Source of the DNA: an uncultured Rhodospirillaceae bacterium
Lineage (GTDB): Bacteria > Pseudomonadota > Alphaproteobacteria > RF32 > CAG-239
Direction of reading: 5' to 3'
DNA: 39,108 nucleotides
Assembly (NCBI GenBank): GCA_900318605.1
Contig: ONLJ01000011.1
Coordinates: 1 to 39,108 of the forward strand
Shown: positions 5,182 to 23,877 of the stretch, in pieces
How the letters are laid out: each line of letters starts with the position of its first letter
Position numbering within the stretch: position 1 is the stretch's first letter
Position numbers and translations under genes: made by a program
The notes under the pieces: model-generated
Seen by the model: the letters and a program-made list of their open reading frames with translations, nothing else
What the model was told of the DNA's origin: nothing
Database searches by the model: none

Positions 5182-5964
5182 TCAATCTTCCGACAAAGAT
5201 TTTATGTATTCATAATCTTTTATTCTTAAATCGATATGCTGTTCGACTCCATGCCCTGTTTCCAATGTAATATAGGCATTTTCATCGGTATAATTGCGCA
5301 AAAAATTCTTCAGCGGATAATTTCCGTCGCCGAGATGTAAATGCAAATCATCAGCTTTATTTATATCTCCATCGCACAAATGATAGACAGTCGGTTTCAA
5401 TTCAAACAAACTTTTTAACTGCGTTTGAATATCCATATTCAAACTCAAAGCCGCACAAATTGCGTGTGAAAAATCGAAACAAAATCCGCAGCCGCTTTTA
5501 TCCATAATATAAGCGATTGCTGCGGCAGTATTACCATGTAGCGCTTCGCCCTCACTCCCGTAATAAGGAATATTTTCAATAACAATCCGCTTATCATTAA
5601 AACCCTTAAACTGCCGCGCCGTTTCCTCAATATACTTTTGACCATGACCATATCCGCCATGCACCACAATAGTTTTAGAATTAAAAATATCGGCAATTTT
5701 TTGCGATATTGCAATCAATTTTCTGTTTTGAGTTTCCGCTTCTTTGTTGCCTGTATCAAAATTTGTGTATGGTGCATGTATCCGCACTTCCACATCTCCG
5801 AGTTGTCGTTTTATTTTCATAAAATCATCATCACTGCTGTCGGGAATAACCATCAGCTCCATAAACATATCTTTTTTTGTTGCGACAAACTCGGCACATT
5901 CCTTGACCAATGCCGGTGCTGTTTGTAAATTTGTACTGAATAATTTGAAACCTAATTTTCTCAT
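5182..5964 (-). CDS. Xylose-isomerase-like TIM-barrel protein (sugar phosphate isomerase/epimerase family)
   Basis: 260-aa ORF with the spaced metal and active-site pattern typical of the family: RIHAPY, IVVHGGYGHG, VIENIPY, CFDFSHA, HLCDGD...LHLHLGDGNYP. Substrate unknown. Confidence 0.6.
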   Translation of the reverse strand: MRKLGFKLFSTNLQTAPALVKECAEFVATKKDMFMELMVIPDSSDDDFMKIKRQLGDVEVRIHAPYTNFDTGNKEAETQNRKLIAISQKIADIFNSKTIVVHGGYGHGQKYIEETARQFKGFNDKRIVIENIPYYGSEGEALHGNTAAAIAYIMDKSGCGFCFDFSHAICAALSLNMDIQTQLKSLFELKPTVYHLCDGDINKADDLHLHLGDGNYPLKNFLRNYTDENAYITLETGHGVEQHIDLRIKDYEYIKSLSED

Positions 5965-5982
5965 TGTCTTTTTCTCTGCAAA

Positions 5983-7263
5983 TTATTTTTTATTCGCCTG
6001 CCAACCTTTAGCCGCACGACTGATACAATCATCATATCTTCCGCAAAATGTTTTTGGCATAGCTATTTTTCCACACACAATTTTTTGACCGACATCTAAA
6101 ATTTCCGGAATTTCCCAAACTTTATTTTCCAACTTATAACGAGCCAAATCGGCAAAAAGACGCGCCTCCATAAAATCCCCGAAATTAGACTGTTTGATAA
6201 CCGGCTCATACGCAAATTTTTCCCGTAAGTTTGCAAAACTCTTTTCATGTTCCGGTAAAATAAAAACTTTTCCTGCTAATAACTTTTCAAAACTTTGACG
6301 AACAACCGGATTTTTCCAACCTCCTCCGAATAAAATAATTTGAGCCGGCATTTTTATATTATCAGGAAGCAGTGTCAGAGCCTGAACGGCAATATATGCA
6401 GCGGCATATTCAAATGTATGAACTACATCTTCAAACGAAATATTTTCCTGTTGCACATATTGAAAAATTCGGCTCTTATGATAATAAGCCGGATCTCCCG
6501 ATTTCGGTAAAGGAGTTTCATAAAAATCCCGTCCGCAATTAAAAATTTCTTTCAGTAATTTTTCGTTCAAATTTCCGTTTTTACCGAACATTCCGTCTTT
6601 ATCATAACTTTCGGCAGAATACCGACGAATATAATTATCGGTATATTCATTAAACGGACCGGCATCTGTACCGAGTAACGCCTTTTTCTCATTTATAATT
6701 GCAAAATTTGAAGTATTTCCGCCGTTATAATAGATACCATCACCTTCCGAAACGGAAATATGAGCATTGTGAGGTGCTACCAATGGTGCGCCGTCAAATC
6801 CTTTCATCAACGGATCAGAACGAAAATCATAAACTACCGGAATACCTGTCAAATCAGCCAACATTTGTCCCGAGCCGATTTGCAATGTATAAGCTTGTGT
6901 CCCGTCAATTTTCGCTTTGGAAGGCGGATTATGATCCAAAGTTTTACCATGAAAGCCGATTGCATCAATAGTAGATTTGTCAATATTATTTTCCCGACAC
7001 ATTTCATTTATACATTCGGCAATCTGCTTTACATAATCATCGTGAACAGATTGAAAATCCGGAATATTTTTGATTTCTTCCGCAGTTTTATTAAAAACTT
7101 CCACCCTTAAATATTCAATCCTTTCCTGCATATTTTTCGTATAAGGACGGGTAAAAGTACAAATATCGGTCATTTTATCACCGTCAAACTCAGTTAATAC
7201 CAAGTCGATGGCATCCATCGAATTTCCCGTCATATTTCCGATTATTTTATATTTTGCCATCAT
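5983..7263 (-). CDS. Anhydro-N-acetylmuramic acid kinase (AnmK)/levoglucosan kinase family protein
   Basis: The family pattern runs along the whole length: GNMTGNSMDAIDLVL, GFHGKTLDH, TLQIGSGQMLADLTGIPVVYDFRSDP...FDGAPLV, YNGGNTSN, TDAGPFNEYTDNY, YDKDGMFGKNGNLNEKLL, LPKSGDP, ILFGGGWKNP. Start set to the ATG pair 7263/7260, preceded by GAGGAG. The ORF-track start 7290 would overlap the upstream gene by 44 nt. Confidence 0.7.
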   Translation of the reverse strand: MMAKYKIIGNMTGNSMDAIDLVLTEFDGDKMTDICTFTRPYTKNMQERIEYLRVEVFNKTAEEIKNIPDFQSVHDDYVKQIAECINEMCRENNIDKSTIDAIGFHGKTLDHNPPSKAKIDGTQAYTLQIGSGQMLADLTGIPVVYDFRSDPLMKGFDGAPLVAPHNAHISVSEGDGIYYNGGNTSNFAIINEKKALLGTDAGPFNEYTDNYIRRYSAESYDKDGMFGKNGNLNEKLLKEIFNCGRDFYETPLPKSGDPAYYHKSRIFQYVQQENISFEDVVHTFEYAAAYIAVQALTLLPDNIKMPAQIILFGGGWKNPVVRQSFEKLLAGKVFILPEHEKSFANLREKFAYEPVIKQSNFGDFMEARLFADLARYKLENKVWEIPEILDVGQKIVCGKIAMPKTFCGRYDDCISRAAKGWQANKK

Positions 7264-8854
7264 ATTCTCCTCTTTTACCTTGCCATTCAATATCTTTTGT
7301 TCTTAAAATACATCTCAAAACATCATAAAATGCTTCAACCAACACACAAGGTTTCACTGCCGAGGTAACCCTTAAATCTGAAGGCCAATGCGAAGGCGGC
7401 ACAAAACATTCAATCGGAATAACCGAAACATTGCAGTCATTCAATATCCGCAAAAAAAGTTCGTAAGCAGTCTGTCGACTGTTTTTTAATCTGATAATAA
7501 TATTAGGTGATACATCATGCAATCCGAAAATATCAAAATATTTTTCCAAATTAAATTTTCTAATCATACTCAAAATCACAAAGTTCTGAAATTTTATATG
7601 TAAATCAATCAGTTCTCTCCATATTTTAAACTCTTGCAATAAAAGAGATTTATCGGATATTTTACCTTTTAATTCCGGCGGAACAGCTGCTTTTCTTTTT
7701 TCCAAAAACGCTTTCTCATAAAAAGCCGTCAATGATACCGTATAATATAAAAAAGACGGCGGAGAACCATAGGTAGTGCTTGCATGCCGATAAAATTTAT
7801 CAATAAAGCTGGCATCGGCCAAAATATGACCTAACTTAAGTCCGGCAATATTATACATTTTAGAATACGAAGCTAATACAATCAGATTTTTATATTTTAT
7901 CGGATCAAGATACGGACTGATTTTTTCATCAAACATAATCTCGTCTGCAATAAAATAAGTTCCGAATCTGGCACATTTTTCCTGTAACACCGGTAAAAAC
8001 TTTTTAATATCGGAAAAGCCACCGGGATTATGCGGAATACTGAATAAAACCACAGCGGTTTTTTCATCAATTCCGTTAATAATATTTTCCATTGAAAAGG
8101 AATAATCCCGATTTAAGAAATATATTTCCGGCTTAAAATAATACCCGATGACATCAATTATCGGAGCATACGTCGGGACAATAACAATACATTTTTTCTG
8201 TCTGTTTCCGAGTTTGGAAATAAAAGACAAAAGTGAGTTCAACCCTTCCGTACCGCCTTGAACGACTGCCGTATTTTCGGCTGAACACTTTTTTTGATTT
8301 CTGCGAAACTGCTCCAGTTGAGCAATTTTACCACGCGTATCCCTATGCCCCAAAGAATCGGAATAACCGAACCAATCATTTTCGGCTGCGACATTTAATC
8401 CCGCTTTAACAAAGGCCGGAGGAAAAAAATAATTCGGGTCATTAACTCCCCGGCTTAAATGTATCGTATTTTTTTTCCTTTTTGATTCACCATAAACATC
8501 ATAGCGGAAAAAACAATCAAAAATTTCTTTTTTTTCTTTAAGCGGAATTTTGTTGTAATTTATCTCAGTCGGTTCTTCTCGCCAATTTTTTACTTTTTCG
8601 GATATGGAAGAAATATTCCAATTTGCACGAAAATAATTTTCATTTTTTGTTTTTTTCCACTCCTTCAGATTTAACGATTTTAATTTTTTCATCAATAAAT
8701 CATATCCGACCGGAATATCCTTTGATAAACGGATATTTTTTAACAAATTTTCTTTAATACAATTATCGACCGGAAAAGACAGGTTCAGCCGTTCAATCAA
8801 TTTTTGAGATTTTTTTTCCAGTTTATGAGCCGTATTGATAAAATCCGTGTTCAT
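7247..8854 (-). CDS. PLP-dependent aminotransferase (fold type I, class I/II) with a long Lys-rich N-terminal extension
   Basis: Core motifs: VVQGGTEGLNSLL, VIVPTYAPI, SIPHNPGG, FIADEIMFDE, and the PLP-lysine motif ASYSKMYNIAGLKLG. About 170 residues precede the recognisable aminotransferase core. Start set to ATG 8854 (MNTDFINT..., AGGAAA upstream). The ORF-track start 8968 is a likely over-extension into the divergent promoter region. Confidence 0.7.
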   Translation of the reverse strand: MNTDFINTAHKLEKKSQKLIERLNLSFPVDNCIKENLLKNIRLSKDIPVGYDLLMKKLKSLNLKEWKKTKNENYFRANWNISSISEKVKNWREEPTEINYNKIPLKEKKEIFDCFFRYDVYGESKRKKNTIHLSRGVNDPNYFFPPAFVKAGLNVAAENDWFGYSDSLGHRDTRGKIAQLEQFRRNQKKCSAENTAVVQGGTEGLNSLLSFISKLGNRQKKCIVIVPTYAPIIDVIGYYFKPEIYFLNRDYSFSMENIINGIDEKTAVVLFSIPHNPGGFSDIKKFLPVLQEKCARFGTYFIADEIMFDEKISPYLDPIKYKNLIVLASYSKMYNIAGLKLGHILADASFIDKFYRHASTTYGSPPSFLYYTVSLTAFYEKAFLEKRKAAVPPELKGKISDKSLLLQEFKIWRELIDLHIKFQNFVILSMIRKFNLEKYFDIFGLHDVSPNIIIRLKNSRQTAYELFLRILNDCNVSVIPIECFVPPSHWPSDLRVTSAVKPCVLVEAFYDVLRCILRTKDIEWQGKRGEYDGKI

Positions 8855-8984
8855 TTTATTTCCTTTTTTTAGCATCATAAACTTAAAAACAAATCTTGTC
8901 CATATAATTATTTTCTTGCCATCTTTTATAAAGTCGTATATAAACATAAATGACTTCAAACATTGCATTTTAAGGAGATTTCAA

Positions 8985-10037
8985 ATGTCTTTTGCCGATT
9001 TAATCAAACCGCATAAATTAGCTCCCGGCGACAAGGTTGCGATTATTTCCCCGTCATGGGCCGGAGCAAGTGTTTATCATGACAGATATTCAGCCGGCAT
9101 AAAGCAAATGGAAGACGAGTTCGGATTGATTGCCGTTGAAGCTCCCAACTCCATGATTGATGCACGGGAAAATGCTGATAATCCGCAAAAAAGGGCAGAT
9201 GACATAAATTGGGCAGTCAAAAATAAAGAAATTAAAGCCATTATTCCGGTAATCGGCGGTGATGATGCCGTACGTCTTTTACCATTTTTGGATTATAAAG
9301 CAATCAGAAACAACCCAAAAATCTTATTGGGCTATTCTGACGGAACCGTTTTACATTTGGCATTTTTGCACGCCGGGGTAAGATCAATCTACGGTCCGGC
9401 AATCATGGCCGGCGGCTTTGCCGAAAACGGGGGGATGTTTGATTATTTCAAAAATTCGGTCAGAAAGACACTTTTTTCAACCGACATCATCGGAAAAATC
9501 GAACCGAATATGGATGGTTGGACAGACGAAGAATTACCATGGAGAGATCCCCAAAATCAGTCCATAAAAAGAAAATTAAAAAAGTCAACCGGCAATAAAG
9601 TGTTGTTGCAAAACGGAAAAGTTCAAGGACATTTGTTCGGCGGATGCATTGAAGTATTGGAAATGCTTAAAGGGACTCCGGTATGGCCGGAAAAAGAATT
9701 TTTCAACGATGCGATACTCTTTTTTGAAACTTCGGAAGAAGCTCCGTCAATTGACTATGTTGTACGGGTATTACGCAATTATGCGGCAACCGGAATTTTG
9801 CAAAAAGCAAACGGGATTATAATCGGCCGCGGCGCTTCATTGCCCGAAAATGAAATGGACAGATACGATCAGGCATTCCTTCATGTAGTTCAAAAAGAAT
9901 GTCACTTAAATATCCCTATCATATCCCAGATGGATTTCGGACATACCGATCCGATGTTTTTATTGCCTTACGGAGCAAAAGCGGAAATTGATTCTTCAAA
10001 CGGAAGTTTTTCAATTTTGGAAAGCGCCGTCATTTAG
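8985..10037 (+). CDS. S66-family serine peptidase, MccF-like (LD-carboxypeptidase family)
   Basis: Start at ATG 8985, after AAGGAG at 8972-8977. Nucleophile motif PKILLGYSDGTVLHL, acid FFETSEE, His motif MDFGHTDPMFLLPYG. The 350-aa length and an inserted Trp-containing loop (DGWTDEELPWRDPQNQSIKRKLKK) fit the MccF clade better than the ~300-aa LdcA. Confidence 0.75.
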   Translation: MSFADLIKPHKLAPGDKVAIISPSWAGASVYHDRYSAGIKQMEDEFGLIAVEAPNSMIDARENADNPQKRADDINWAVKNKEIKAIIPVIGGDDAVRLLPFLDYKAIRNNPKILLGYSDGTVLHLAFLHAGVRSIYGPAIMAGGFAENGGMFDYFKNSVRKTLFSTDIIGKIEPNMDGWTDEELPWRDPQNQSIKRKLKKSTGNKVLLQNGKVQGHLFGGCIEVLEMLKGTPVWPEKEFFNDAILFFETSEEAPSIDYVVRVLRNYAATGILQKANGIIIGRGASLPENEMDRYDQAFLHVVQKECHLNIPIISQMDFGHTDPMFLLPYGAKAEIDSSNGSFSILESAVI

Positions 10038-10053
10038 GTTTACTCTAAGAAAA

Positions 10054-10689
10054 ATGCTGAAAAATATATTATGGGATAATGACGGCACACTGATAGATAC
10101 AGCAACTCTGTTCTGCGATGCCAACAGAGTTGCTTTATTATCAAAAAACATCTTAATGGATGAAAAACTTTTTGTAAAAATCTCGCAAAAACAGGGCAAA
10201 AGTATTTTAGAATATTATGCTCTCAAAAACTCGTGGAACGAAAAACAATTAAAAGAGTTGTATTTGCTTCGACAATCAAAATATACCGAGATGTTGAAAA
10301 ACGGTGCCGCCTTGAACTATGAAGCATTTAACCTTATCGAATGCTTAAAACAAAAAGGCATAAAAAATTTTATGGTTACCGGATCGAGTAAAAATGAACT
10401 ATTGCTTGAATACTCAAAAAAAAGCGATTTATTGGCACTGTTTGACGATATCATCACCGCAGATGACTGTGACAGGCCTAAACCGCATCCGGATTCTTTG
10501 CTTCTGATAATAAAAAAATGGCACCTTTACAGCAACGATTCGGTTGTCATCGACGACCTGCCGAGAGGAATAATTGCCGCCCGAAAAGCAGGGCTGAAAG
10601 CGATTCGTTATAACCCGTTCGTAAAAAAAAGCAAATACGCAAGTTTTTCAAAACTGTTATATTCGTTGGAAAACATTGCAAACAAATAA
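10054..10689 (+). CDS. HAD-superfamily phosphatase (subfamily IA, beta-phosphoglucomutase-like)
   Basis: Start at ATG 10054, 17 nt after the upstream stop. Motif I WDNDGTLIDT (DxDxT), motif II VTGSS, motif III/IV RPKPHPD and VVIDDLPRGIIAARKAGL. Confidence 0.75.
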   Translation: MLKNILWDNDGTLIDTATLFCDANRVALLSKNILMDEKLFVKISQKQGKSILEYYALKNSWNEKQLKELYLLRQSKYTEMLKNGAALNYEAFNLIECLKQKGIKNFMVTGSSKNELLLEYSKKSDLLALFDDIITADDCDRPKPHPDSLLLIIKKWHLYSNDSVVIDDLPRGIIAARKAGLKAIRYNPFVKKSKYASFSKLLYSLENIANK

Positions 10690-10693
10690 ATGC

Positions 10694-11803
10694 CTAGATA
10701 TGCACCGACTTAAAATTATTGATTTTTGCAATATTTTCAACCGATTTTATAATTTCCTCATTTGCCGATGAAATATAAATATTTCCGGAAATCATATCTA
10801 AAAATTCAGGCAAAAAATCGCCGGTTATTACCTTAAGATTCGGAGAAATAATACCACCGCGATATTGCTGTTTCAGACAAATCAAGACTGCTTTTTCTCC
10901 CCTATTCAAAACCTCTTTCAAATATTTCCGTGTCGAACGATTATACCCGATAAACCAATGATTAAAACACGAAAGATTATTTTTATTTTTTTTACTGTAT
11001 TGAAATTGTTCGAGCATTTTCAGTGTCTTTTTTTTCATGAGTTTCAAATCATCAGGTTGCAGCGTATCTCTCCATTCTCCGACCAAACCTTTTCTGAATA
11101 TTCTCGGTTGATTTTTATCTTTGAGATATTTCATTTCCTCACTTTTTATTTTTGAAAAACGTGAATTTTCGACCGCGTTTTCAATTTCTTTTTTGGTTCG
11201 TTTGATTTTGAGACTTTTCAATAAGTTCTTTATTGTTTTCAGCGGATTGAATTTTAAGTCTTCGTATTTGACCAAACAGAGTTGATGTCCTGCCTCGTTC
11301 CCCCATTCAATCCATTTTTCAATATAAGATGTCCAATCATCAAAAGGTTTTTTACCGTAAAATCCCTTTGTATTCAAAAAATCGCTTAAACTTCCCTTCT
11401 CATCGGAAAATCCCCTGCGCCAATTATAATATGAAATAACCGCATCTCTGGCATCTCTTACCAAAAGCACGGCTGTATGAGGTTTGGCATTAACATAACT
11501 TTCGGGATAAAAATGAGTTTTAAAAAAACGAACTTCTCTCGATTTTTCTATCACATATTTTTCTTCAAGTTGTCTCCAATGCTTGCGCCACAAAGGCAAA
11601 ACGACATCGGTTTTTCTTTTATTTTCGGAAATTTTTTCCTGATATCCTTCAATATAATCAAGCCCCAATTCCAGCAATATTCCTCCCATCAAAGAACTTC
11701 CCGAACCTAAATAGCTGGCAAGTATCACATCATCGCTTTCAAGCTTTTTTATATTTTCCGTTGCCAATTTCAAATCAGCATCTTTTTCTGAACCCGACAT
11801 CAA
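10694..11803 (-). CDS. Sulfotransferase-fold (Sulfotransfer_1-like) protein with an atypical 5'-PSB loop and a ~100-aa C-terminal extension
   Basis: 3'-phosphate-binding motif VLLVRDARDAVISYYNW, catalytic-His region FFKTHFYP, YEDLKFNP, and C-terminal FRKGLVGEWRD. The PSB loop reads SYLGSGSSLMG instead of PKSGTTW. The start overlaps the stop of the upstream gene (11800-11803). Confidence 0.75.
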   Translation of the reverse strand: MMSGSEKDADLKLATENIKKLESDDVILASYLGSGSSLMGGILLELGLDYIEGYQEKISENKRKTDVVLPLWRKHWRQLEEKYVIEKSREVRFFKTHFYPESYVNAKPHTAVLLVRDARDAVISYYNWRRGFSDEKGSLSDFLNTKGFYGKKPFDDWTSYIEKWIEWGNEAGHQLCLVKYEDLKFNPLKTIKNLLKSLKIKRTKKEIENAVENSRFSKIKSEEMKYLKDKNQPRIFRKGLVGEWRDTLQPDDLKLMKKKTLKMLEQFQYSKKNKNNLSCFNHWFIGYNRSTRKYLKEVLNRGEKAVLICLKQQYRGGIISPNLKVITGDFLPEFLDMISGNIYISSANEEIIKSVENIAKINNFKSVHI

Positions 11804-12564
11804 AATACTCCGTTATAAAATTTATTGCTCTCATATTTATTTAAATCTTCAATCGTATCAACTTCAATCCAACCGCCGTGAACAATCACGCCTTTAATCG
11901 GATTTCCGGCATTTATCAGATGTTGTAAAAATGTCGTCATATACATATTTTGATATGTTTTTCCGTCATAATCGGCAAACTTATTCATACTTTTATAAAA
12001 GCTGATAATTTCAGGAAGAACATTTTTTTTAAATTTCGTTAATCCGATATATTGCGCTTGTATTCGTGCATAATCTTTCGTTTTTTTCCCGAGTTCCAAA
12101 ATATTATTTTCTTCGGAAAGTATTAAACTCTCAGCATCATCAAGCGGATTATCCATACGAAATCGCCATAATTTTTCCCAATTTTTATCCACTATTGTTG
12201 CAATATTTGCCTCGGAGTTTATCAGTTTTTCCAAGTTATCGAAAGTATAAACAATATCGGAATATGAAACAATCACATCATCATTCAACTCGTTTTCACA
12301 AGAAAACAATGTAGTAACCATATTTGATTTTTCATAATTTTCGGCAAAATATACCTTAACATTTGAACCGGATAAATGCTCTTTTAAGACATCGAATTTA
12401 TATCCGCCGATAACAACAATATCGGAAATACCGTTTTTCTTAAATCTTTCGATAATGATGTCAATCAGAGGTTTTCCGTTCAGTAATACCATACATTTCG
12501 GCACCTCATTTGTCAGAGGTCGCAAACGATTTCCCTGTCCTGCCGCTAAAATAATTGCTTTCAT
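11800..12564 (-). CDS. Nucleotidyltransferase; Cj1416-like CTP:phosphoglutamine cytidylyltransferase candidate
   Basis: 254 aa with the N-terminal NTP-transferase signature MKAIILAAGQGNRLRPLTNEVPKCMV. 4-nt overlaps at both ends. Sits in the context of the three other phosphoramidate-pathway families. Confidence 0.7.
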   Translation of the reverse strand: MKAIILAAGQGNRLRPLTNEVPKCMVLLNGKPLIDIIIERFKKNGISDIVVIGGYKFDVLKEHLSGSNVKVYFAENYEKSNMVTTLFSCENELNDDVIVSYSDIVYTFDNLEKLINSEANIATIVDKNWEKLWRFRMDNPLDDAESLILSEENNILELGKKTKDYARIQAQYIGLTKFKKNVLPEIISFYKSMNKFADYDGKTYQNMYMTTFLQHLINAGNPIKGVIVHGGWIEVDTIEDLNKYESNKFYNGVF

Positions 12565-13175
12565 TTTTCGTTTTTCCCTTCAAAAATTTTTTGGAATAAT
12601 TTTATATCTTCGAGTTGAAAAATTTTTTCTCTTTCCGGATGCCACATAACAGCATAAATGCTTTTATATTTATGATGAAACGCTTCGATAATACCGTCAA
12701 ATGAAACATAATCCGCCTCAAAATCTTCAGGAATGTTTTTAACTGCATAATTATGAAAAGAATTGACCGATCTTCTTAAATTCTCTCCGCGGATTTCGTG
12801 AGATATCGCCACATGATTTTTAACCGATTGCAATGAGCCTCCGAAAAAATTGTTTATTTGCTGCATTCCGTGGCATACCCCGATAACCGGCATATTCGCT
12901 TTGATTGCTTCTTGAAGCAATTTTTTTTCAAATGTATCTCTGATTTTATTGACCTCTTCGGAACTGACGGAAAAAAGGTCATTTCCACCGGAAAGCACGA
13001 TTCCCGATATTTCCATTTTTTGCAAAAACTGCAGAATATCATGTTTTACAGATATCGGAATCAAAAAGAATCCGCAACTTTTCATAAACTCATACCATCT
13101 CACATCGAGAGATTCTCTTATTTCCCGACCGTCATATTCACTTGATATTCTTTGAGTAATGGCAATATTTATCAT
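12561..13175 (-). CDS. Class I glutamine amidotransferase / peptidase C26; Cj1417-like gamma-glutamyl-CDP-amidate hydrolase candidate
   Basis: 204 aa with the nucleophile elbow PVIGVCHGMQQIN and a His-Glu pair in VMWHPERE. 4-nt overlaps with both neighbours. Confidence 0.7.
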   Translation of the reverse strand: MINIAITQRISSEYDGREIRESLDVRWYEFMKSCGFFLIPISVKHDILQFLQKMEISGIVLSGGNDLFSVSSEEVNKIRDTFEKKLLQEAIKANMPVIGVCHGMQQINNFFGGSLQSVKNHVAISHEIRGENLRRSVNSFHNYAVKNIPEDFEADYVSFDGIIEAFHHKYKSIYAVMWHPEREKIFQLEDIKLFQKIFEGKNEK

Positions 13176-15514
13176 CTGATTATCCTTAACTGTTTATTTA
13201 ATGCATCTATTTCGATAAATTCAGCTTTTCGCAGCTCATTAAACCGTTTTTCTCCGATACCTATTACGGCAGGAATATTTTGTTCCATACAGCGAATAGC
13301 CATATGTGAATTAGCCCCGCCGAATTGAGTAATCAGTCCGGCAATATTTTTGGTAAAAATAAAATCATATCCCGGATCAGCCGCTCTGATACAAATAATC
13401 TTATTTTGACAATCAGCATTATGTATTTCTTCTTCACAAATCACTTTAGCTTTAACTTTTCTCTGAGTTACATAATTAGGAATATTTTCATTCTGCTCAA
13501 AGCAAAAAATATCTTTTGCCGAACAGAAAACTTCCGGAAGTTTAACGTATTTGGTATAATAATAATTTATTTTACTTTGGTTGATTTTATTTTGCAAAAA
13601 CTCTTTTTTTTCTTTCACTGTTTCAAAATGTTCAAGCAAATCATAAATCGAAACGTATGATATATCTTCTTTTGAAATTGATAAAGAATGAGCATATTCC
13701 CCAATCAGGAGCAATATATGACTCAAGATTTTTGTGAATATAAATTTACTTTTATCCCGCCACAAAATACTGTCTTCTATGCAATTTAGCAAGTATTTGG
13801 CAGAAAAATTAAGACCTTCCCGTACCAATAACTCATCAATTTTTTGCAGTTGTTTTTGCGTGAAAGAATTTTTTTTCAGAGGTTTTTCAGCAATCGAACT
13901 TGATGTTGACATATTGAAATACGAATTAAAATCTTCATCATATCTCAATGAAAGAATATCATAAGAACTCGGCCGCAAATGTCCCCATTTTTCCAAAAAT
14001 TTTTTTTGAGTTATTTTTTTGTTTCTGAGTTTAACAATATCGAATTGTATTTCTTCGGAAATTATGGGAATCGAACAAATAAAATCATTGTACTGTTGCA
14101 AAGTTATAATTTTCTTTTCCAAAAACGAATCCAAAAATTGTTTTCCGATAAAAGCTGTTCTGGCAATCCCCGCAAACGGCAATGTTCCGAATTTTTTGCA
14201 CGCTTCAAGCAACTCTTTTGTTTTTTCTTCAAAACTCATTTTTTTTGCAAACAACAATTTGCAATTTTCCTGCAATTTTTGCACTGAAAGAATGTCTTTT
14301 TTATACAGCGGAACCGGATAATTAAAAACACTGTTTGTTATTTTTCTCAAAGAACTTAAAAACTCGTTGATTTGCTTTGGCGACAATAAATCGGAAAATT
14401 TTTCCTTAATATTATCGCCGGAAGTTAACGTTGCTGCCGTAAATAAAATGCTGAATTCAGCTTTATCATGCAATTCAGGATTTTTTTCCAAAGCCCTTAA
14501 ATAATAATCCGTAATCTTGCGAGATGTCTTTTTGCTTAAATCGGACGGAATAAAAGAATTAAAATCCGTTCTCACATCAATATACGGACATCCCATAAAA
14601 GAATGAAGCAAACGATAAGGTGCCACATTTTTATAACCGTAATTTTTACGCTGGATTGCCCAGATATCATCGGTTATCAGGGCTTTATATAATGACAAAG
14701 CCAACGGATTCGGACATGTACCGATCATTTCGGCAGGATTCCAATCCGTCATCATGCTGAATATATTACCTTTACCGTCCAACTTATTTTTTCTGCTGTT
14801 ATTTTTGATTTCCTGATAAAGTAATTTCAATTTATCAAAAAAAAGTTCATCTGATATTTTTTCTCTTGTAAAAGAACTCTGGACAATCAGCGGTCGAACT
14901 TGAAAAATGTACAATTTTTTTTGCTTATCAAAGGCAAATTCAATATCCAATGTATCGGAATCATAAATACGTTCTATTTCTTTTACAGCAGATAATAACG
15001 ATTTTATCGGCAACTCTCCCGACAATTTATTCAATTTAACAGACCGTGAAATAACTATGGTTTTTCCCTGTCCCGAACCGGACGTAATCGTATTTGTCTT
15101 ACCGTCATTGGTATAATTGATAATATAATAAGGCGCACCGGTTGCATGATCACGAGTAAACATAACGCCGGAGATCCAAATATCCTTCAGCATCGGTTGG
15201 ATTAAAATTTCATCTTCATCATTGCGATAATCTTTTGTGACAGCGTCAATAGCCTTAACCAAACTTTTTGAATCCGGTTCGACATTCAAAACGGATTTAT
15301 AAACACCGGCATTGGATTGCTCGGCTCGATCTTCGTTATATGCAGATGAGCGAACAATTACCTCAGATTTAAATGCCGATTTAATTTGATTTAAGAAAAA
15401 ATTTTTATTTTTTTTATATTCGGAAAACAAAAAACACAACAAAGGAAGAATTTCAAATTTTTTTGCTTTGTTTTTTAAAAAAATCAGATTTTGCGCCTTT
15501 GAATTTAAAGTCAT
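13172..15514 (-). CDS. ATP-grasp plus phosphohistidine-swivel enzyme; Cj1418-like L-glutamine kinase candidate
   Basis: 780 aa. N-terminal PPDK_N/ATP-grasp signature VIVRSSAYNEDRAEQSNAGVYKSVLNV. The PEP-utilizer mobile-domain His motif (LITQFGGANSHMAIRCMEQNIPAVIG) is at the extreme C-terminus, so there is no PEP/pyruvate-binding TIM-barrel domain as in PpsA/PPDK. Confidence 0.7.
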   Translation of the reverse strand: MTLNSKAQNLIFLKNKAKKFEILPLLCFLFSEYKKNKNFFLNQIKSAFKSEVIVRSSAYNEDRAEQSNAGVYKSVLNVEPDSKSLVKAIDAVTKDYRNDEDEILIQPMLKDIWISGVMFTRDHATGAPYYIINYTNDGKTNTITSGSGQGKTIVISRSVKLNKLSGELPIKSLLSAVKEIERIYDSDTLDIEFAFDKQKKLYIFQVRPLIVQSSFTREKISDELFFDKLKLLYQEIKNNSRKNKLDGKGNIFSMMTDWNPAEMIGTCPNPLALSLYKALITDDIWAIQRKNYGYKNVAPYRLLHSFMGCPYIDVRTDFNSFIPSDLSKKTSRKITDYYLRALEKNPELHDKAEFSILFTAATLTSGDNIKEKFSDLLSPKQINEFLSSLRKITNSVFNYPVPLYKKDILSVQKLQENCKLLFAKKMSFEEKTKELLEACKKFGTLPFAGIARTAFIGKQFLDSFLEKKIITLQQYNDFICSIPIISEEIQFDIVKLRNKKITQKKFLEKWGHLRPSSYDILSLRYDEDFNSYFNMSTSSSIAEKPLKKNSFTQKQLQKIDELLVREGLNFSAKYLLNCIEDSILWRDKSKFIFTKILSHILLLIGEYAHSLSISKEDISYVSIYDLLEHFETVKEKKEFLQNKINQSKINYYYTKYVKLPEVFCSAKDIFCFEQNENIPNYVTQRKVKAKVICEEEIHNADCQNKIICIRAADPGYDFIFTKNIAGLITQFGGANSHMAIRCMEQNIPAVIGIGEKRFNELRKAEFIEIDALNKQLRIIR

Positions 15515-16272
15515 TTTTTACATTTTCCGTTCCATGTTCTGCAAGTATATTTCACAAAAAACTCATCAGGCAGTTTTGCATAAATTTTATCGCATATTCG
15601 ATTGAATATTTTCTCTCCTTCCGGCGTAGCCAAATCCCAATATTTATTCTTAACGCTTTTCCATGCCTTTATGTAGTTTTCCAAGGTCTGCTTAAAATTA
15701 AAATCCATTTCCATATACATTATATCAGTAAAAAGATTCGAATTTTCAATAACTTCGCGTTGGTCTTGTCTTCTGATACCGCGTTCATAATCAGGAATTA
15801 TTTCTTTTATAATTGCTTCAACCTCTTTTTGAAAACCATCATTTAAATCCCGATGATTCCACAAGCAGGAAAAGACGCCGTTTTTTTTCAGGATTCTACC
15901 GGTTTCATGCAAGGCCTTATTTCTATCCAATACATTAAAACTGCTTCCGAAAGCAACTAAATCAAAAGAATCATCAGACAATGTCGTATTATAACCGTCC
16001 GCATCAATCCACGTAATTTGTTTCAAATTTTTCGTTCTTTCTTTTCCGATATCCGACATCGCTTTCGTCGGCTCGACGGCTTTTATAAAACAGGGATATT
16101 TTGCCAATAAAACGCTCAAATTACCGGTTCCGGCACCGATATCGGCAACCTCGAAATTATCAATTAAGGACAAATTCCCGTATTCAATGATGCAATCAAT
16201 AACTTTTTGCGGATAGTTCGGTCTGTATTTATAATACGGGGCTTGAAGCGTATAATCCCAATTTTCGGCCAT
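15511..16272 (-). CDS. Class I SAM-dependent methyltransferase (Cj1419/Cj1420-like candidate)
   Basis: 253 aa with SAM motif I VADIGAGTGNLSVLL and post-I/II motifs AVEPT, FDLVAFGSSFNVL, LKKNGVF. 4-nt overlap with the downstream gene and a 1-nt gap to the upstream gene. Confidence 0.75.
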   Translation of the reverse strand: MAENWDYTLQAPYYKYRPNYPQKVIDCIIEYGNLSLIDNFEVADIGAGTGNLSVLLAKYPCFIKAVEPTKAMSDIGKERTKNLKQITWIDADGYNTTLSDDSFDLVAFGSSFNVLDRNKALHETGRILKKNGVFSCLWNHRDLNDGFQKEVEAIIKEIIPDYERGIRRQDQREVIENSNLFTDIMYMEMDFNFKQTLENYIKAWKSVKNKYWDLATPEGEKIFNRICDKIYAKLPDEFFVKYTCRTWNGKCKK

Positions 16273-16273
16273 T

Positions 16274-16789
16274 TCAGCATTCCTTGACTAAGTCCAGTAT
16301 CATTTCTGCTTTTTTTTCGATATTCCCGTCATCGTTATTATCAATAGTTAAGGATATAAAAGGAGGAAAATCATACTGTTGGTTAATTCCGACAATATTT
16401 TTTGTAGCACCGATATCTTTTTTATACAACCCTTTTTTATCTCTTTGTTTAATTTTTTCGAGGTCGGCAACAATCAATATAACTTTATGGTTGGCGATAT
16501 TTTTCGCATTAAATTCATGAATTTCGGAAAACATTGATATGGTAGCGGCCACAACGTTTATCCCCTGATCCGTCAAAAGTTTGCACAGTCCGGATATTCT
16601 CTTGGCGTTTTGTAATCTTTCCGGCAAAGAATATCCAAGGTCATAATCACACATTTTTCTTACGCAATCGCCGTCAATCAGTACCCAATTTTTTGCCTTT
16701 TGTTTTAACCTATTGTATAAACTTGTAGCGATTGTTGTTTTTCCGACTCCGGAAAAACCGGTAATCCAAATCAGTTGTCCTTTTTGCAT
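16274..16789 (-). CDS. APS-kinase-fold nucleotide 3'-kinase; Cj1415-like cytidine diphosphoramidate kinase candidate
   Basis: 171 aa with P-loop WITGFSGVGKTTIA, then LIDGDCVR and the overall size of CysC-type adenylylsulfate kinases. No ATP sulfurylase gene is nearby. Confidence 0.7.
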   Translation of the reverse strand: MQKGQLIWITGFSGVGKTTIATSLYNRLKQKAKNWVLIDGDCVRKMCDYDLGYSLPERLQNAKRISGLCKLLTDQGINVVAATISMFSEIHEFNAKNIANHKVILIVADLEKIKQRDKKGLYKKDIGATKNIVGINQQYDFPPFISLTIDNNDDGNIEKKAEMILDLVKEC

Positions 16790-16842: not shown

Positions 16843-18042
16843 TTATCGTTCCAGTCCTATTTTAATTTGCGAAACCTTCAAAGCGGCAGGTATTATCTGT
16901 TGAGGTCTGGATAGAAAAGTATATAACTGAACCAAATTTTCCGTTTCCGCAACTTTTTCCAATTTACGATTATAAATTTTATAGCCATTATCCGTAACGA
17001 TAATATTAGTCGGACAAGATAAAAATTGCGAACATTTCTGACGATTGATAACGGACACATTCGTACGGTCATCAACAGCCACGCTAAGCCCCAGACTTTT
17101 CATCCGTTCATAAGTCATATTAGCAAGCGGCTTTAATTTTTGCTGCAACGGAATCACAACATAATCAAAAGGCCTCAAACACTCCGGCAAATTGAAACCG
17201 TATTCATCTCGGTTCGCATCCATTATTGAGAACAAAGTCCTTTGTGTCCCCATACCATAGGTCAAAAACAAAGGTTTTACTTTTTTATTTTCCGAATTTG
17301 TATATTTCAATTTGACCGGTTTATCGGTTGTGTAATGATAATACATTGCTAAGCTGAGAGCTTTTGTTTTTTTGCTTTCATCAATTTGAGGAAGATACAC
17401 ATTTTCCTTTCCGGCCTCGGATAAATAAAAATATTCCGCCATAAGTTTATCGCCGTTATCCTGTTTGTAAAAAGGCAAGCGAAAAGTCGAAAAAATCGAT
17501 TGTGTTAACGAATCAAACATCTCGGAAGATTTAATCAATGAATTCCTGTCGGTATCCACGGAAAAACCTCCAAACATTTTGAATTGTTTCCCTCTTAAGA
17601 AATGCCTCGGATCAGCCATATTGCGATAAAAATTGGTTGAATAAACATATCTCAAAGGCAGTTGAGAGTGCGACAAGTTATTATCCGACAAAACCTTAAT
17701 AAACAAAGGTTCAGGAGTCATCATTAAATGAAATCCCTCCATTTTTCCGGACAGATACATAATTTTGCTTCTGAATTGTTGCCCGATTTCCTGACCCTGT
17801 TCCAAAACATTGTTATCAATAATCGTCGGCGGTTCGATTTGTTCCATACCATAATTGTCAGCTATATCCATCATCGTATTTTCCATATTTCTGACAATCT
17901 TTATACCCAGAGGCGTTAAAAGAGGAATGGCATTAGTATCAAAACAAAACAAAATATCGTTCAACAAATTTTCCGTAGGCTGTTGATTAAACGGCTCACG
18001 CAGATTATAGTTGTTAATATTGATTTGTTTAGATAAAAACAT
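16843..18042 (-). CDS. Class IIa aminoacyl-tRNA synthetase paralogue (ProRS-like catalytic core plus anticodon-binding-like domain, no editing domain)
   Basis: 399 aa. LLTPLGIKIVRNMENTMMDIADNYGMEQIEPPTI (motif 1 region). HLMMTPEPLF...LSHSQLPLRYVYSTNFYRNMADPRHFLRGKQFKMFGGFSV (motif 2 with the Arg retained). LTYGMGTQRTLFSIMD (motif 3, G.G..R). C-terminal FDYVVIPL...GLSVAVDDR resembles a class IIa anticodon-binding domain. Far too divergent from canonical bacterial ProRS to be the housekeeping enzyme. Confidence 0.65.
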   Translation of the reverse strand: MFLSKQININNYNLREPFNQQPTENLLNDILFCFDTNAIPLLTPLGIKIVRNMENTMMDIADNYGMEQIEPPTIIDNNVLEQGQEIGQQFRSKIMYLSGKMEGFHLMMTPEPLFIKVLSDNNLSHSQLPLRYVYSTNFYRNMADPRHFLRGKQFKMFGGFSVDTDRNSLIKSSEMFDSLTQSIFSTFRLPFYKQDNGDKLMAEYFYLSEAGKENVYLPQIDESKKTKALSLAMYYHYTTDKPVKLKYTNSENKKVKPLFLTYGMGTQRTLFSIMDANRDEYGFNLPECLRPFDYVVIPLQQKLKPLANMTYERMKSLGLSVAVDDRTNVSVINRQKCSQFLSCPTNIIVTDNGYKIYNRKLEKVAETENLVQLYTFLSRPQQIIPAALKVSQIKIGLER

Positions 18043-18053
18043 TACTTACATCC

Positions 18054-20525
18054 TTAATCGCGGGTTTTCCTGCACAGATTTATCAATCTCGGCAACAAAG
18101 TTTTCTTATCACGAATAACAATGACTTTAACGTCTTCTCCGAGTGAACTTCTGTAAGACTGAATCTTTTGATCACGGCTTTCGGAAATAGTTCTTTCGAT
18201 ATCTTCATTTGAAGCCTCGGCATCAACCGACAACTCGCACTTCTTTTTACCGTTAACGGTTAACGGAATAGCGATTTCGTTAGTTCTGAAGTCAATTAAA
18301 GAGCTTTCGATTTCCGGCCACTTATCGGTAAATATCGAACGTTTTTGCGCAAAGCATTCTCTCCATAACGTATCAGCCGTATGCGGTGTGAATACCCCGA
18401 TAACCTTAAGAAATTCTTTCATTGCCAAACGCTGTACTTTTCCCGATTCGCTGTCTTCATTGATTTTATCTCTGTTTTTAGCGAGTACGTTCGCAAATTT
18501 ATATATTTTAGCAATCGCCACGTGAAAAGATTGATTGTCCTCTATTTCGCGACGCACATCTTTGGCTGTGTGATGAAGTTCCGCCAAAAGGAACTTATCT
18601 TTCTGACTTAAGTTTTCGGCAACAATCGATTCATCTTCACGCGGTTTAACGGTTCTGTACATACCAACCAACGAACCCAAAAATTTCTTTTTGGCCTGCA
18701 ATCCCGTTTCACTCCATTCCGTATCCAACTGGAACGGCTTATCCGACAACAAATATAAACGCAAAGCATCGGCACCGTATTTTTCAATCATTTCATCAGG
18801 ACGAACAACATTTCCCAAAGACTTTGACATCTTATGTCCGCCCAGTTTGACAATACCGTTATCCAAAAAGTTCTTAACCGGCTCTTTAACCGGAGTCAAA
18901 CCGAGTTTATAAAGAAAATGAGACATAAAACGCAGATAAATCATATGCTGATTGGCATGTTCCAAACCGCCGACATAATAATCAATCGGCATCCATTTTT
19001 TTGCTTTTTGCGGGTTCCAAGGTTGTTCATCATTATGCGGATCCAAAAAACGCCATACATACCACGCCGAACACATAAAGGTATCCAACGTATCCGTTTC
19101 TCGTGTACATATTTCTCCGGTTTGCGGATTTTTATAATTCAAAAATGACTCGTCAACGGTCAGCGGCGATCTACCTTTAGCCAACTCAAAATTCATCTCT
19201 TTCGGCAGTCTTACCGGCAACTCATCTTCTTGAACCGGCTTAAAGTTGCCGCTGCTATCCTTTACAAACGGAATCGGACATCCCCAAAAACGCTGTCTTG
19301 AAATCGACCAATCTTTAAGCTTGTACCTTATTTTTCGCTCGCCGATATTTTTCTTTTCCATATAATCCGAGATAAACTCTCTTGCCTGATTACTTGTTTT
19401 TCCGTTCAATAGCCAACTGTGAATCATCTTATCTTCACCATCAACCAACTTAGGCAAATAATCCAAATTCCGCTTTTGCGCAAATGCGGCATCTTTTTCA
19501 TTTATTGCCGGAATACACGCAACGATTCCCGTACCTTCCGTCGGCATAATATGATCGGATACAAAGACCGGGATCTGTTTTCTGGTCAACGGGTGGATAA
19601 CATAACTTCCGGTAAAGACAGATGATAAATCCGCTTGAGAAACCCTTTCGGTCGAACTTTTCAACAAAGCTTTTTTGATATATTCATCCATTGCATCTTT
19701 TTGAGACGGCACCGTTAATAAATCTGCCAAATCATGTTCCGGAGCAACATAAAGTGCGGAAATACCGAAAACAAATTCCGGATTTTGAATAAAGGTTGTC
19801 ATGTTGAACTTTTGCTCATCATCGGAAAAATGCAAATCGACTCCTTCCATTCTCCCAATCCAGTTACGTTGCATTGCTATAGCCTGAGAAGACCAATTAA
19901 GTTCATCCAATCCGTTCCACAAATCTTCGGCATAATCGGTAATTCTGACAAACCACTGTTCCATTTTTTTTCTTTGAATGGGAGCACCGCTTCTCCAACC
20001 TTTTCCGTCAATAACCTGCTCATTGGCCAAAACAGTTTTATCGACCGGATCCCAATTTACCCACTCATCGGCCCGATATAAAAGATTATTTTCGTAAAGC
20101 TTCAAAATCAGCCACTGTGTCCATTTATAATACTCCGGAGAAGCCGTAACGATTTCTCTGTCCAAATCAAAGGAAAAACCCATCGGTCCGATTTGTTCGT
20201 CTCGCATTTTTTCAATATTTTTTTGAGTCCATTTTTCCGGATGAACATTATTCTTAATTGCGGCATTTTCGGCAGGTAGTCCGAAAGCATCCCAACCGAT
20301 GGGATGTAAAACATCTTTTCCCATAAAACGTTCCAAACGCGCCAACGTATCGGAAATTGAATACACCAGTGCGTGTCCCATGTGCGCATTTCCAGAAGGA
20401 TATGGAAACATACCGAGAATATATGATTTTTGTCCCGATGTTTCACGAGTCGTATCGACTCCTTCTTCTTTCCATTTTCTTTGAATTTCTTCTTCTTGCT
20501 GCCTTATATTCATAGCTTCAGCCAT
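18054..20525 (-). CDS. leuS: Leucyl-tRNA synthetase (bacterial type, atypical/reduced)
   Basis: 823 aa with MFPYPSGNAHMGH (HIGH), GWDAFGLPAENAAIKNN, VLANEQVIDG, RDW-type [42 protein letters not shown] (KMSKS) and YGADALRLYLL. Confidence 0.93.
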   Translation of the reverse strand: MAEAMNIRQQEEEIQRKWKEEGVDTTRETSGQKSYILGMFPYPSGNAHMGHALVYSISDTLARLERFMGKDVLHPIGWDAFGLPAENAAIKNNVHPEKWTQKNIEKMRDEQIGPMGFSFDLDREIVTASPEYYKWTQWLILKLYENNLLYRADEWVNWDPVDKTVLANEQVIDGKGWRSGAPIQRKKMEQWFVRITDYAEDLWNGLDELNWSSQAIAMQRNWIGRMEGVDLHFSDDEQKFNMTTFIQNPEFVFGISALYVAPEHDLADLLTVPSQKDAMDEYIKKALLKSSTERVSQADLSSVFTGSYVIHPLTRKQIPVFVSDHIMPTEGTGIVACIPAINEKDAAFAQKRNLDYLPKLVDGEDKMIHSWLLNGKTSNQAREFISDYMEKKNIGERKIRYKLKDWSISRQRFWGCPIPFVKDSSGNFKPVQEDELPVRLPKEMNFELAKGRSPLTVDESFLNYKNPQTGEICTRETDTLDTFMCSAWYVWRFLDPHNDEQPWNPQKAKKWMPIDYYVGGLEHANQHMIYLRFMSHFLYKLGLTPVKEPVKNFLDNGIVKLGGHKMSKSLGNVVRPDEMIEKYGADALRLYLLSDKPFQLDTEWSETGLQAKKKFLGSLVGMYRTVKPREDESIVAENLSQKDKFLLAELHHTAKDVRREIEDNQSFHVAIAKIYKFANVLAKNRDKINEDSESGKVQRLAMKEFLKVIGVFTPHTADTLWRECFAQKRSIFTDKWPEIESSLIDFRTNEIAIPLTVNGKKKCELSVDAEASNEDIERTISESRDQKIQSYRSSLGEDVKVIVIRDKKTLLPRLINLCRKTRD

Positions 20526-21336: not shown

Positions 21337-21411
21337 ACAATCCTCCTTTTTTTCGATAAATAAAGGGAGAAACACTTATGCCTTCTCCCTTTATTTTACA
21401 AAGTTTTCGGA

Positions 21412-21627: not shown

Positions 21628-21684
21628 TTTTTATTCCTCTAAATTTTAAGTTAATACCAAATTGTTCTTTTTTTTATGTAGCTT

Positions 21685-23784: not shown

Positions 23785-23831
23785 TTTATTTTATCTCCTT
23801 AAAATTAGCGGTTACTGTTTATCATCATCTC

Positions 23832-23877
23832 ATACAACATATAGATGAATAAAAAGTTAAACAACTATATATTGTGG
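23832..23877. promoter_or_regulatory. Pair of NrdR-box-like palindromes upstream of nrdD
   Basis: ATACAACATATAGATG (23832-23847; reverse complement CATCTATATGTTGTAT) and CAACTATATATTGTGG (23862-23877). By my alignment each matches about 13 of 16 positions of the NrdR consensus acaCwAtATaTwGtgt. Centres are 30 bp apart, 48-93 nt upstream of the nrdD ATG. Confidence 0.6.

Follow-up and report, generated by a model that had tools for sequence, protein, structure and literature searches.

The operon and its last gene

The stretch of DNA analysed here (the window) comprises 39,108 nucleotides of contig ONLJ01000011.1 from an uncultured Rhodospirillaceae bacterium (assembly GCA_900318605.1). Its minus strand carries an operon that encodes, in order of transcription, a leucyl-tRNA synthetase (LeuRS), a prolyl-tRNA synthetase (ProRS)-like protein, a kinase, a methyltransferase, a glutamine kinase, a hydrolase, a cytidylyltransferase and a sulfotransferase-like protein. 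The last of these genes (positions 10694..11800; 368 amino acids from its ATG; Pfam PF00685) specifies a sulfotransferase-fold protein that is a candidate phosphoramidyl transferase, and it is the subject of this report. Features described below lie on the minus strand unless stated otherwise.

In the list of open reading frames (ORFs) the gene was called as 10694-11803, beginning with a TTG at 11803. The likely start is the ATG at 11800-11798, which shares its A with the TGA stop of the upstream gene at 11802-11800 (TGATG), whereas a start at the TTG would overlap that stop by two bases. Orthologues of 365-368 amino acids begin at the position equivalent to the ATG, which is therefore favoured, and the TTG is probably not used. 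For either codon, direct reading of the sequence upheld the overlap with the cytidylyltransferase stop that had been described in the first-pass annotation of this DNA, and the tight coupling of the two genes is real.

The Sulfotransfer_1 domain (PF00685) covers residues 24-261 of the window protein (E=1.7e-27), and a phmmer search of the PDB returned the cytosolic sulfotransferases (SULTs) SULT1B1 and SULT1E1 as top matches (E ~2e-12). Structure prediction with AlphaFold2, using 22 homologues as input, gave a confident model (mean predicted local distance difference test (pLDDT) score 90.5; predicted template modelling score 0.90) with the expected sulfotransferase fold. The top 50 Foldseek matches of this model were without exception structures of cytosolic SULTs, in almost every case with 3'-phosphoadenosine-5'-phosphate (PAP) or 3'-phosphoadenosine-5'-phosphosulfate (PAPS) bound, at E values of about 1e-9 to 1e-10 and a TM score of 0.6 normalised to the target.

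Alignment to SULT1B1 and SULT1E1 confirmed that the window protein retains the motif set ascribed to it, with coordinates that were checked by translation. These motifs are KTH at residues 95-97 (11513..11521), equivalent to the catalytic Lys and His and aligned to K106/H108 of SULT1E1; RDARDAVISYY at residues 116-126 (11426..11458), the 3'-phosphate-binding motif; and FRKGLVGEW at residues 236-244 (11072..11098), which contains the RKG 3'-phosphate/nucleotide motif. The equivalent of the 5'-phosphosulfate-binding (PSB) loop, at residues 32-37 (11693..11710), reads LGSGSS. HMMER placed SYLGSGSSL of the window protein on TYPKSGTTW, with Gly33 at the position of the sulfotransferase Lys. The absence of this lysine, which the first-pass annotation had pointed out, is thus genuine, and the loop departs from the pattern P-K/R-S/T-G-T/S-T/S of PAPS-dependent sulfotransferases.

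The five genes upstream resemble those for activation of phosphoramidate in Campylobacter jejuni. The kinase (16274..16789) has the fold of adenosine 5'-phosphosulfate (APS) kinase, belongs to the PRK05541 type (NF004041) and is a candidate cytidine diphosphoramidate 3'-kinase. It is followed by an S-adenosylmethionine-dependent methyltransferase (15511..16272; Pfam), which accompanies the sulfotransferase-like gene more constantly than any other partner, and by a Cj1418-like L-glutamine kinase homologue with PPDK_N and PEP-utilizers domains (13172..15514; PRK05849, 862 bits against a cutoff of 501). We take PRK05541 and PRK05849 to be the families of Cj1415 and Cj1418, respectively. Next comes a Cj1417-like class-I glutamine amidotransferase-like hydrolase (12561..13175), for which NF045546 (GCDPHdlase, gamma-glutamyl-CDP-amidate hydrolase) was by far the best match (E=8.6e-51) at 172.8 bits, below the cutoff of 250. 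The NTP-transferase that precedes the gene of interest (11800..12564) matched only the generic Pfam NTP_transferase family, with LicC, a CTP:phosphocholine cytidylyltransferase, as nearest PDB entry. Its position in the operon and its co-conservation in 20 of 25 clustered loci support a Cj1416-like role. Inspection of the ORF list and of the Pfam matches left no large ORF of the operon unassigned.

A lysine-less clade and its genomic setting

The lysine is missing from relatives of the window protein as well. A word-indexed search yielded 31 close relatives, all metagenomic, none of which has Lys at the loop position. An exhaustive profile search over 1.84 billion representatives (50% identity) gave 105 proteins at E<=1e-30, and the best 150 profile matches were aligned for reading of the loop. 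Among the top 73, the loop was aligned in 72, and the critical position was occupied by Gly in 67, Asn in three, Ser in one and Ala in one; Lys or Arg was found in none. The first canonical PK/RSG..W loop appeared at rank 74. Comparison of the loop with related proteins thereby established loss of the lysine as a character of the clade.

In SULTs, the Trp that follows the PSB loop stacks on the adenine. At the equivalent of this position (Trp53), Leu was present in 58 of the 72 clade members, and Trp in 25 of the 28 matches with Lys or Arg in the loop. Over ~80 non-redundant clade members, Arg116 and Ser124 were each conserved at 100%, Gly239 at 99%, Arg237 at 96%, His97 at 90% and Lys95 at 86%. 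Because nucleotide-binding and catalytic residues are retained across these members, the pattern points to an active enzyme with an altered donor pocket rather than to decay.

Beyond the sulfotransferase domain, the AlphaFold2 model contains a C-terminal beta-alpha-beta (Rossmann-like) domain of ~98 residues (~272-369; 10697..10990), in which most blocks of 10 residues have a pLDDT of 93-96. The remark in the first-pass annotation that about 100 C-terminal residues match nothing recognisable was sound: Pfam gave no match in this part of the window protein, and searches of the PDB by phmmer and with a profile built from 14 of these domains returned nothing significant. The domain was present only in an alphaproteobacterial-type subclade and absent from homologues of 265-310 amino acids elsewhere; since it is limited to one subclade, it is not part of the core chemistry but a dispensable add-on. 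It might bind the acceptor, as suggested earlier. Two proteins, P0022 and P0023, have a longer version (residues ~285-400) with a match to Pfam ThiF below threshold (E=1.3e-5; 24.9 bits, cutoff 28.1). They include a ThiF/E1-like stretch, DDSTVSPADLDN...G.PKA, that lacks the glycine-rich ATP loop and is deleted in the window protein. Identity of the domain as a ThiF remnant is a lead only, the Pfam match being sub-threshold and the PDB searches negative.

Contig look-ups, together with a scan in which each prokaryotic species was represented by a single genome, gave 34 distinct lysine-less loci, the window included. The loop was read in each, and the loci were scored by tblastn with the window proteins within 10 kb. 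Hosts fell in five phylum-level groups, namely Alphaproteobacteria, Actinomycetota (Streptomyces, Krasilnikovia, Lentzea, Nonomuraea and others), Planctomycetota, Acidobacteriota and Betaproteobacteria. The betaproteobacterial host is a Rhodocyclaceae metagenome-assembled genome (MAG). Alphaproteobacterial hosts are likewise MAGs, the nearest named relative being a sheep-rumen MAG at 68% identity.

A cassette-type methyltransferase was found in 33 of the 34 loci and an APS-kinase-like gene in 31. The full set of glutamine kinase, amidotransferase-like hydrolase and NTP-transferase was found in 18, a nineteenth candidate (L051) being interrupted by the end of its contig. In three loci, phosphonate genes take the place of the amidate genes. 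As a control, 14 loci with weaker sulfotransferase matches were taken from the same species scan; every loop that could be read was canonical and bore Lys or Arg (PKSGNT, PKAGT, PKTGST), and methyltransferase or amidate genes were present in none. The difference in cassette linkage between lysine-less and control loci gave a Fisher p of about 3e-11, or 6e-10 when near-identical loci were collapsed. The lysine-less clade is therefore linked almost obligately to an APS-kinase-like gene and a methyltransferase. The expectation that homologues with an LGSGSS-type loop always neighbour Cj1415-1418 homologues is largely borne out by these counts, but "always" is too strong in view of the three phosphonate loci and 11 Streptomyces loci described below.

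All-against-all clustering of the ORFs of 25 loci revealed no other gene family shared among them. The sulfotransferase-like gene can accordingly be proposed as the transferase: every other conserved gene has a step assigned to it, and the pathway requires such an enzyme. In many loci it is adjacent to or overlaps the methyltransferase gene, and a single protein combines methyltransferase and sulfotransferase domains in L011 and P0045.

The partner kinases differ from those of sulfate activation. Five kinases encoded beside lysine-less genes (in the window, L010, L013, L019 and L029) scored best on NCBIfam PRK05541, at 142-188 bits against a cutoff of 127, and all fell below the cutoff of the CysC model (TIGR00455). 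The values for the window kinase were 158 bits on NF004041 (PRK05541) and 119 bits on TIGR00455 (cutoff 138.7). By contrast, two kinases beside canonical sulfotransferases (L033, L041) reached 240-249 bits on TIGR00455 and were below the PRK05541 cutoff. Cassette kinases carry the signature TIS[ML]F[HS]E (TISMFSE in the window) where CysC has ISPY.

The first-pass annotation had also noted no ATP sulfurylase nearby. In agreement, tblastn with E. coli CysD and CysN found no match in the window, a search in which Sat-type ATP sulfurylase was not queried separately; the large ORFs of the window are otherwise accounted for. The same queries found no match in any lysine-less locus; they matched only in L041, where a canonical PKSG-type sulfotransferase and a true CysC lie side by side, which served as a positive control. 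Occurrence of the LGSGSS-type loop in ordinary sulfation loci with CysDN and CysC would have spoken for PAPS as donor, and 0 lysine-less loci encode CysD/CysN. Coupling to PAPS supply, in the form of ATP sulfurylase plus a CysC-type kinase, was found neither at the window nor at the lysine-less loci. Genes for CysQ-family (Inositol_P) phosphatases are present in L005 and L012, with a homologue in L009, and fit recycling of a 3',5'-bisphosphonucleotide by-product.

One locus provides an internal control. L011 is a flagellin-glycosylation island in the Rhodocyclaceae MAG (DATFAA010000041.1, 1-20777), with two flagellins, a GT41 protein and a 1686-residue GT2 protein. It also encodes the glutamine kinase, hydrolase and cytidylyltransferase. 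A protein of 1025 amino acids combines a lysine-less Sulfotransfer_1 domain (YPGSGAAW), a Sulfotransfer_3 domain with a canonical loop (PRSGSTLL), TPR repeats and a methyltransferase. Of the two kinases encoded in the locus, one is a true CysC, with 61% identity to that of E. coli, and the other, also of the APS-kinase fold, is closer to the cassette kinases. Use of two different donors is the simplest explanation for this pairing of kinases and of sulfotransferase domain types in one locus.

In the three phosphonate loci (L013, L018 and L029, the last at 5680-10876), the glutamine kinase and hydrolase are replaced by a phosphoenolpyruvate (PEP) mutase with a fused cytidylyltransferase domain, a thiamine pyrophosphate-dependent (phosphonopyruvate) decarboxylase and an Fe-dependent alcohol dehydrogenase. 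Retained are the NTP-transferase, the APS-kinase-like gene (PRK05541-type in L013 and L029, where this was tested), the methyltransferase and the lysine-less gene; in L029 these form a single operon of overlapping genes. Because amidate genes are exchanged for phosphonate genes, these loci suggest that the module moves phosphonyl groups too.

Neighbours vary further. In L053 (Streptomyces CP054916.1, 3671-12121), genes for methyltransferase, glutamine kinase, amidotransferase-like hydrolase, NTP-transferase, kinase and an O-methyltransferase are followed by a 706-residue fusion of a ketosynthase to a lysine-less sulfotransferase, and in a Lentzea locus an aromatic amino-acid lyase is a neighbour. 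Such variety would be expected of a portable tailoring module that serves varied acceptors.

The proposed reaction and its rivals

The loop clade and the cassette linkage support the earlier proposal of a sulfotransferase-fold phosphoramidyl transferase. On present evidence we consider it probable that the window protein is a group transferase that moves phosphoramidyl from 3'-phospho-cytidine-5'-diphosphoramidate (3'-phospho-CDP-amidate), with release of cytidine 3',5'-bisphosphate. In the mechanism that we infer, this nucleotide, rather than PAPS, would be supplied as donor by the five upstream genes, possibly after O-methylation. Arg116, Ser124 and the Arg237-Lys-Gly motif would grip the 3'-phosphonucleotide as they do PAP in sulfotransferases, and His97 would take the proton from an acceptor hydroxyl. 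Attack of that hydroxyl on the terminal P(O)(NH2) phosphorus would then expel the bisphosphate as leaving group. Replacement of Lys by Gly and of Trp by Leu would probably adapt the pocket to phosphorus bearing a non-oxygen substituent (NH2, OMe, alkyl) and to cytidine over adenosine, although this role for the loop change is speculative.

Several observations weigh against this interpretation. L030 is lysine-less and has no cassette gene nearby. Eleven near-identical loci of Streptomyces and relatives (L019-L024, L026-L028, L047, L048) contain within 10 kb only the kinase (PRK05541-type in L019), the methyltransferase and the sulfotransferase-like gene; the corresponding amidate genes may be located at another place in the genome. 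In a Helicobacteraceae MAG (L057; WTBY01000004.1, 7551-13697), a distant sulfotransferase-like gene of 392 codons with an Arg-bearing GRSGS loop lies directly upstream of a kinase gene with the cassette-type signature, followed by genes for methyltransferase, glutamine kinase, amidotransferase-like hydrolase and NTP-transferase. As this protein keeps the Arg, loss of Lys is not required for association with the cassette, and the pairing of the sulfotransferase fold with the cassette is wider than the lysine-less clade. Phosphoramidyl and sulfuryl groups are, moreover, equal in charge, so that a chemical need for loss of the lysine is conjecture.

Two features of these settings were observed in addition. 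The L057 genes lie in a Maf-type flagellar glycosylation island. Phenazine (phz) genes flank L047 and L048; the neighbours found in L019 and L016 were limited to an AMP-binding enzyme, an MFS transporter and regulators.

The explanation that comes nearest to the favoured one keeps the 3'-phosphonucleotide donor and changes the cargo: O-methylated phosphoramidyl groups or nitrogen acceptors would be involved, and the family would consist of generic "P-X" transferases (phosphonyl, methyl-phosphoryl). No partner is as constant as the methyltransferase, which in some cases is fused to the sulfotransferase domain, and this agrees with such a view, as does the retention of NTP-transferase, kinase, methyltransferase and sulfotransferase-like gene in the three phosphonate loci, and a neutral or bulkier cargo would account for the exchange of Lys for Gly. 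It is nonetheless a refinement of phosphoramidyl transfer rather than a true alternative to it; as a separate explanation we regard it as unlikely.

Slightly less likely still is conventional PAPS-dependent sulfation of the pathway product, for example N-sulfation of the phosphoramidate, with PAPS supplied by the APS-kinase-like gene. In its favour, no element of the sulfotransferase fold is missing, and the catalytic His, the 3'-phosphate motif and the RKG motif are all in place. Natural products with both phosphorus-nitrogen (P-N) and N-sulfate groups exist, such as those with the sulfamoyl-phosphoramidate of phaseolotoxin or sulphostin, and provide a precedent. For the reduced Streptomyces loci, sulfation plus methylation is indeed the simplest reading. 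However, Lys or Arg is absent from the loop of all 72 best relatives, neither the window nor any lysine-less locus encodes CysD/CysN, and all tested partner kinases, including one from a reduced Streptomyces locus, are of the PRK05541 type. In L011, a canonical sulfotransferase domain and a true CysC occur in addition to the lysine-less domain and the cassette-type kinase, and sulfation would leave the activated phosphoramidate without a transferase in the 25 clustered loci.

Other transferases must also exist. In an Arcobacter MAG (L056, 5244-8471), a cassette without a sulfotransferase-like gene is flanked by genes for a protein of 705 amino acids (precomputed PF22674, C2185-like_N), from a family of nine members, and a 363-residue kinase with a ~200-residue C-terminal extension. 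The 705-residue protein has no homologue in the window, nor in the lysine-less loci. At least 2729 glutamine kinase homologues were counted, against far fewer lysine-less sulfotransferase-like clusters, so the sulfotransferase-like solution serves only a minority of these pathways. Among the two-domain matches of the sulfotransferase-like family profile, of 577-726 amino acids, none was Campylobacter-named.

These numbers, the Arcobacter cassette and the loss of the key catalytic Lys would also suit a protein that transfers no group, being a degenerate nucleotide-binding or regulatory subunit or a donor hydrolase beside some other enzyme (for example of the Cj1421/Cj1422 type), but this is improbable given that His97, Lys95, Arg116, Ser124 and Arg237 are conserved at 86-100% in ~80 divergent members, that the 25 compared loci hold no other conserved transferase candidate and that the 705-residue protein is without a counterpart in the window or the lysine-less loci.

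Accessory genes and comparison with known systems

The window operon begins with a bona fide bacterial LeuRS (18054..20525; TIGR00396, 785 bits, cutoff 548), which may be either a housekeeping or a self-resistance copy. The second gene (16843..18042) encodes a divergent ProRS-like class II aminoacyl-tRNA synthetase (aaRS) paralogue of 399 amino acids, recognised by Pfam tRNA-synt_2b and by a PDB match to ProRS (E=4.5e-16). It scores 80 bits on the NCBIfam ProRS model (cutoff 558), and in it motif 2 reads YRNM for FRDE and motif 3 is kept. It lies 11 nt downstream of the LeuRS gene and lacks the editing domain. We propose that it acts as a ligase and not as a housekeeping ProRS. An aaRS-like gene is kept in six of six alphaproteobacterial-type loci, counting the window, and is replaced by an ATP-grasp ligase in L009/L012 and L051. 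LeuRS genes are adjacent in L001, L005, L007 and L031 (the last from Acidobacteriota) and an IleRS gene in L009/L012, three phyla in all; L051, a metagenome contig, contains a class I aaRS fragment.

Convergent with the operon, on the plus strand, are genes for an MccF-family S66 peptidase (MccF confers immunity to microcin C; 8982..10037; Pfam S66 and S66C) and a HAD-family phosphatase (10054..10689; Pfam HAD_2). The peptidase matched 5f9m, a Bacillus MccF paralogue, at E=2e-100 and E. coli MccF at about 1e-34. It recurs in L003, L005, L007 and L051, the last of which also has the phosphatase.

Beyond them lies a gene on the minus strand (7247..8968) for a pyridoxal phosphate (PLP) enzyme of 573 amino acids with the Aminotran_1_2 fold (Pfam) and a ~170-residue N-terminal extension. 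In other phyla, PLP homologues are encoded directly upstream of the sulfotransferase-like gene, abutting or overlapping it, in L012 (8189-9991), L050 (567-2801) and L051 (7059-9299), and in L003 the PLP enzyme is fused to HAD. The enzyme may make the acceptor. The PLP proteins are 573-750 amino acids long, and their best NCBIfam match was the guanitoxin cyclodehydratase GntC, at 80 bits and far below cutoff.

Elsewhere in the window, NrdG, NrdD (anaerobic ribonucleotide reductase) and AdhE are encoded within 20644-25451 and 33815-36415; these genes indicate an anaerobe. A TrpRS gene at 24402-25451 brings to three the aaRS-type genes within 8.6 kb. An Rfam scan of the window for leaders and riboswitches gave no match, and Pfam gave none for two overlapping plus-strand ORFs of 612 (36578-38416) and 169 (38409-38918) codons.

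The acceptor in the window is probably a small molecule that would then be acylated by the ProRS-like ligase, a weaker inference than that of the transferase itself. The product would be an N-acyl (methyl)phosphoramidate resembling an aminoacyl-adenylate, and the MccF-like peptidase, possibly together with the LeuRS, would give self-protection. The aaRS-like, LeuRS and MccF-like genes, taken with what is known of microcin C/MccF, of agrocin 84 with its resistant LeuRS and of phosmidosine, hint at an antibiotic that mimics an aminoacyl-adenylate.

A broader picture can be offered only tentatively, and we hold it to be doubtful as a whole. The lysine-less clade would form a new class of phosphorus-group transferases whose donors, with phosphoramidate, methyl-phosphoramidate or phosphonate linked to 3'-phospho-CMP, would be products of PRK05541-type kinases. 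As a portable tailoring module, it would modify both small molecules and flagellar glycans, across five phyla or more. In the window it would contribute to a methyl-phosphoramidate aminoacyl-adenylate mimic aimed at LeuRS, against which the MccF-like peptidase and the adjacent LeuRS would protect.

If the proposed reaction is correct, the sulfotransferase superfamily reaches from sulfuryl to phosphoryl-type transfer (P-N and phosphorus-carbon, P-C), and the reason why the pathway builds a 3'-phosphorylated, PAPS-like nucleotide would be explained. A Gly in place of Lys or Arg in the PSB loop, together with a PRK05541-type kinase and a methyltransferase, would then be a simple marker for mining of phosphoramidate and phosphonate loci, both for natural products and for modification of glycans. 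The window cluster, from an uncultured alphaproteobacterium of gut or rumen, may itself specify a new inhibitor of aminoacyl-tRNA synthetases. In the full-text literature searched, no report linking the sulfotransferase fold to phosphoramidate or phosphonate transfer was found.

Among phosphorus-containing antibiotics, phosmidosine is a prolyl O-methyl phosphoramidate of 8-oxoadenosine (PMC6429109, PMC11229370). Like the systems of phosmidosine, microcin C with MccF and agrocin 84 with the AgnB2 LeuRS, the window pairs an MccF-family S66 peptidase, a ligase homologue and an aaRS with genes for a P-N bond. The similarity is one of resemblance only: unlike in microcin C, neither an MccB/ThiF adenylyltransferase nor a peptide precursor is evident in the window, and the P-N bond would be formed via glutamine by the Cj1418 route.

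CMP-phosphonate cytidylyltransferases take part in nucleotide-activated tailoring of phosphonates (PMC6697681). L013, L018 and L029 resemble such pathways in pairing PEP mutase genes with the module of kinase, methyltransferase and sulfotransferase-like gene. To our knowledge, phosphonate tailoring as so far described involves neither a 3'-kinase nor a sulfotransferase-fold transferase, and neither was found in connection with it in the full-text literature searched.

The O-methyl phosphoramidate (MeOPN) pathway of C. jejuni, with its 3'-phospho-CDP-amidate intermediate, has been described (PMC6429109, PMC3907429). Where that pathway has Cj1415-Cj1418 and the methyltransferases Cj1419/1420, the window has homologues of the glutamine kinase and the 3'-kinase, a match below cutoff to the hydrolase model, a putative cytidylyltransferase and an S-adenosylmethionine-dependent methyltransferase, but in a compact operon with an aaRS-like ligase, a LeuRS and an MccF-like peptidase rather than in a capsule locus. 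For the last MeOPN step, in which the activated P-N group is transferred, the literature searched offers only a genetic assignment, to Cj1421/Cj1422. Transferases of this type are ~600 amino acids long and phase-variable (PMC13317227). The candidate described here, soluble, of 368 amino acids and with a sulfotransferase fold, is set apart from these ~600-residue proteins by length and description. Being small, soluble and confidently modelled, with a clear donor hypothesis, it makes the transfer step testable in vitro.

With the cytosolic SULTs (SULT1E1, SULT1B1, SULT1A1), finally, the window protein has in common the fold, the Lys-x-His, Arg/Ser and RKG motifs and, as we would predict, a 3'-phosphonucleotide leaving group. 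The fold is thus a known one, and what is new is the predicted donor and the predicted transferred group. The clade differs from SULTs in having Gly for the PSB-loop Lys or Arg in most members, mostly Leu for the Trp and, in one subclade, an added C-terminal domain. Unlike SULT-type sulfation loci, it is linked to PRK05541-type kinases and to genes of P-N and P-C chemistry in place of ATP sulfurylase and CysC.

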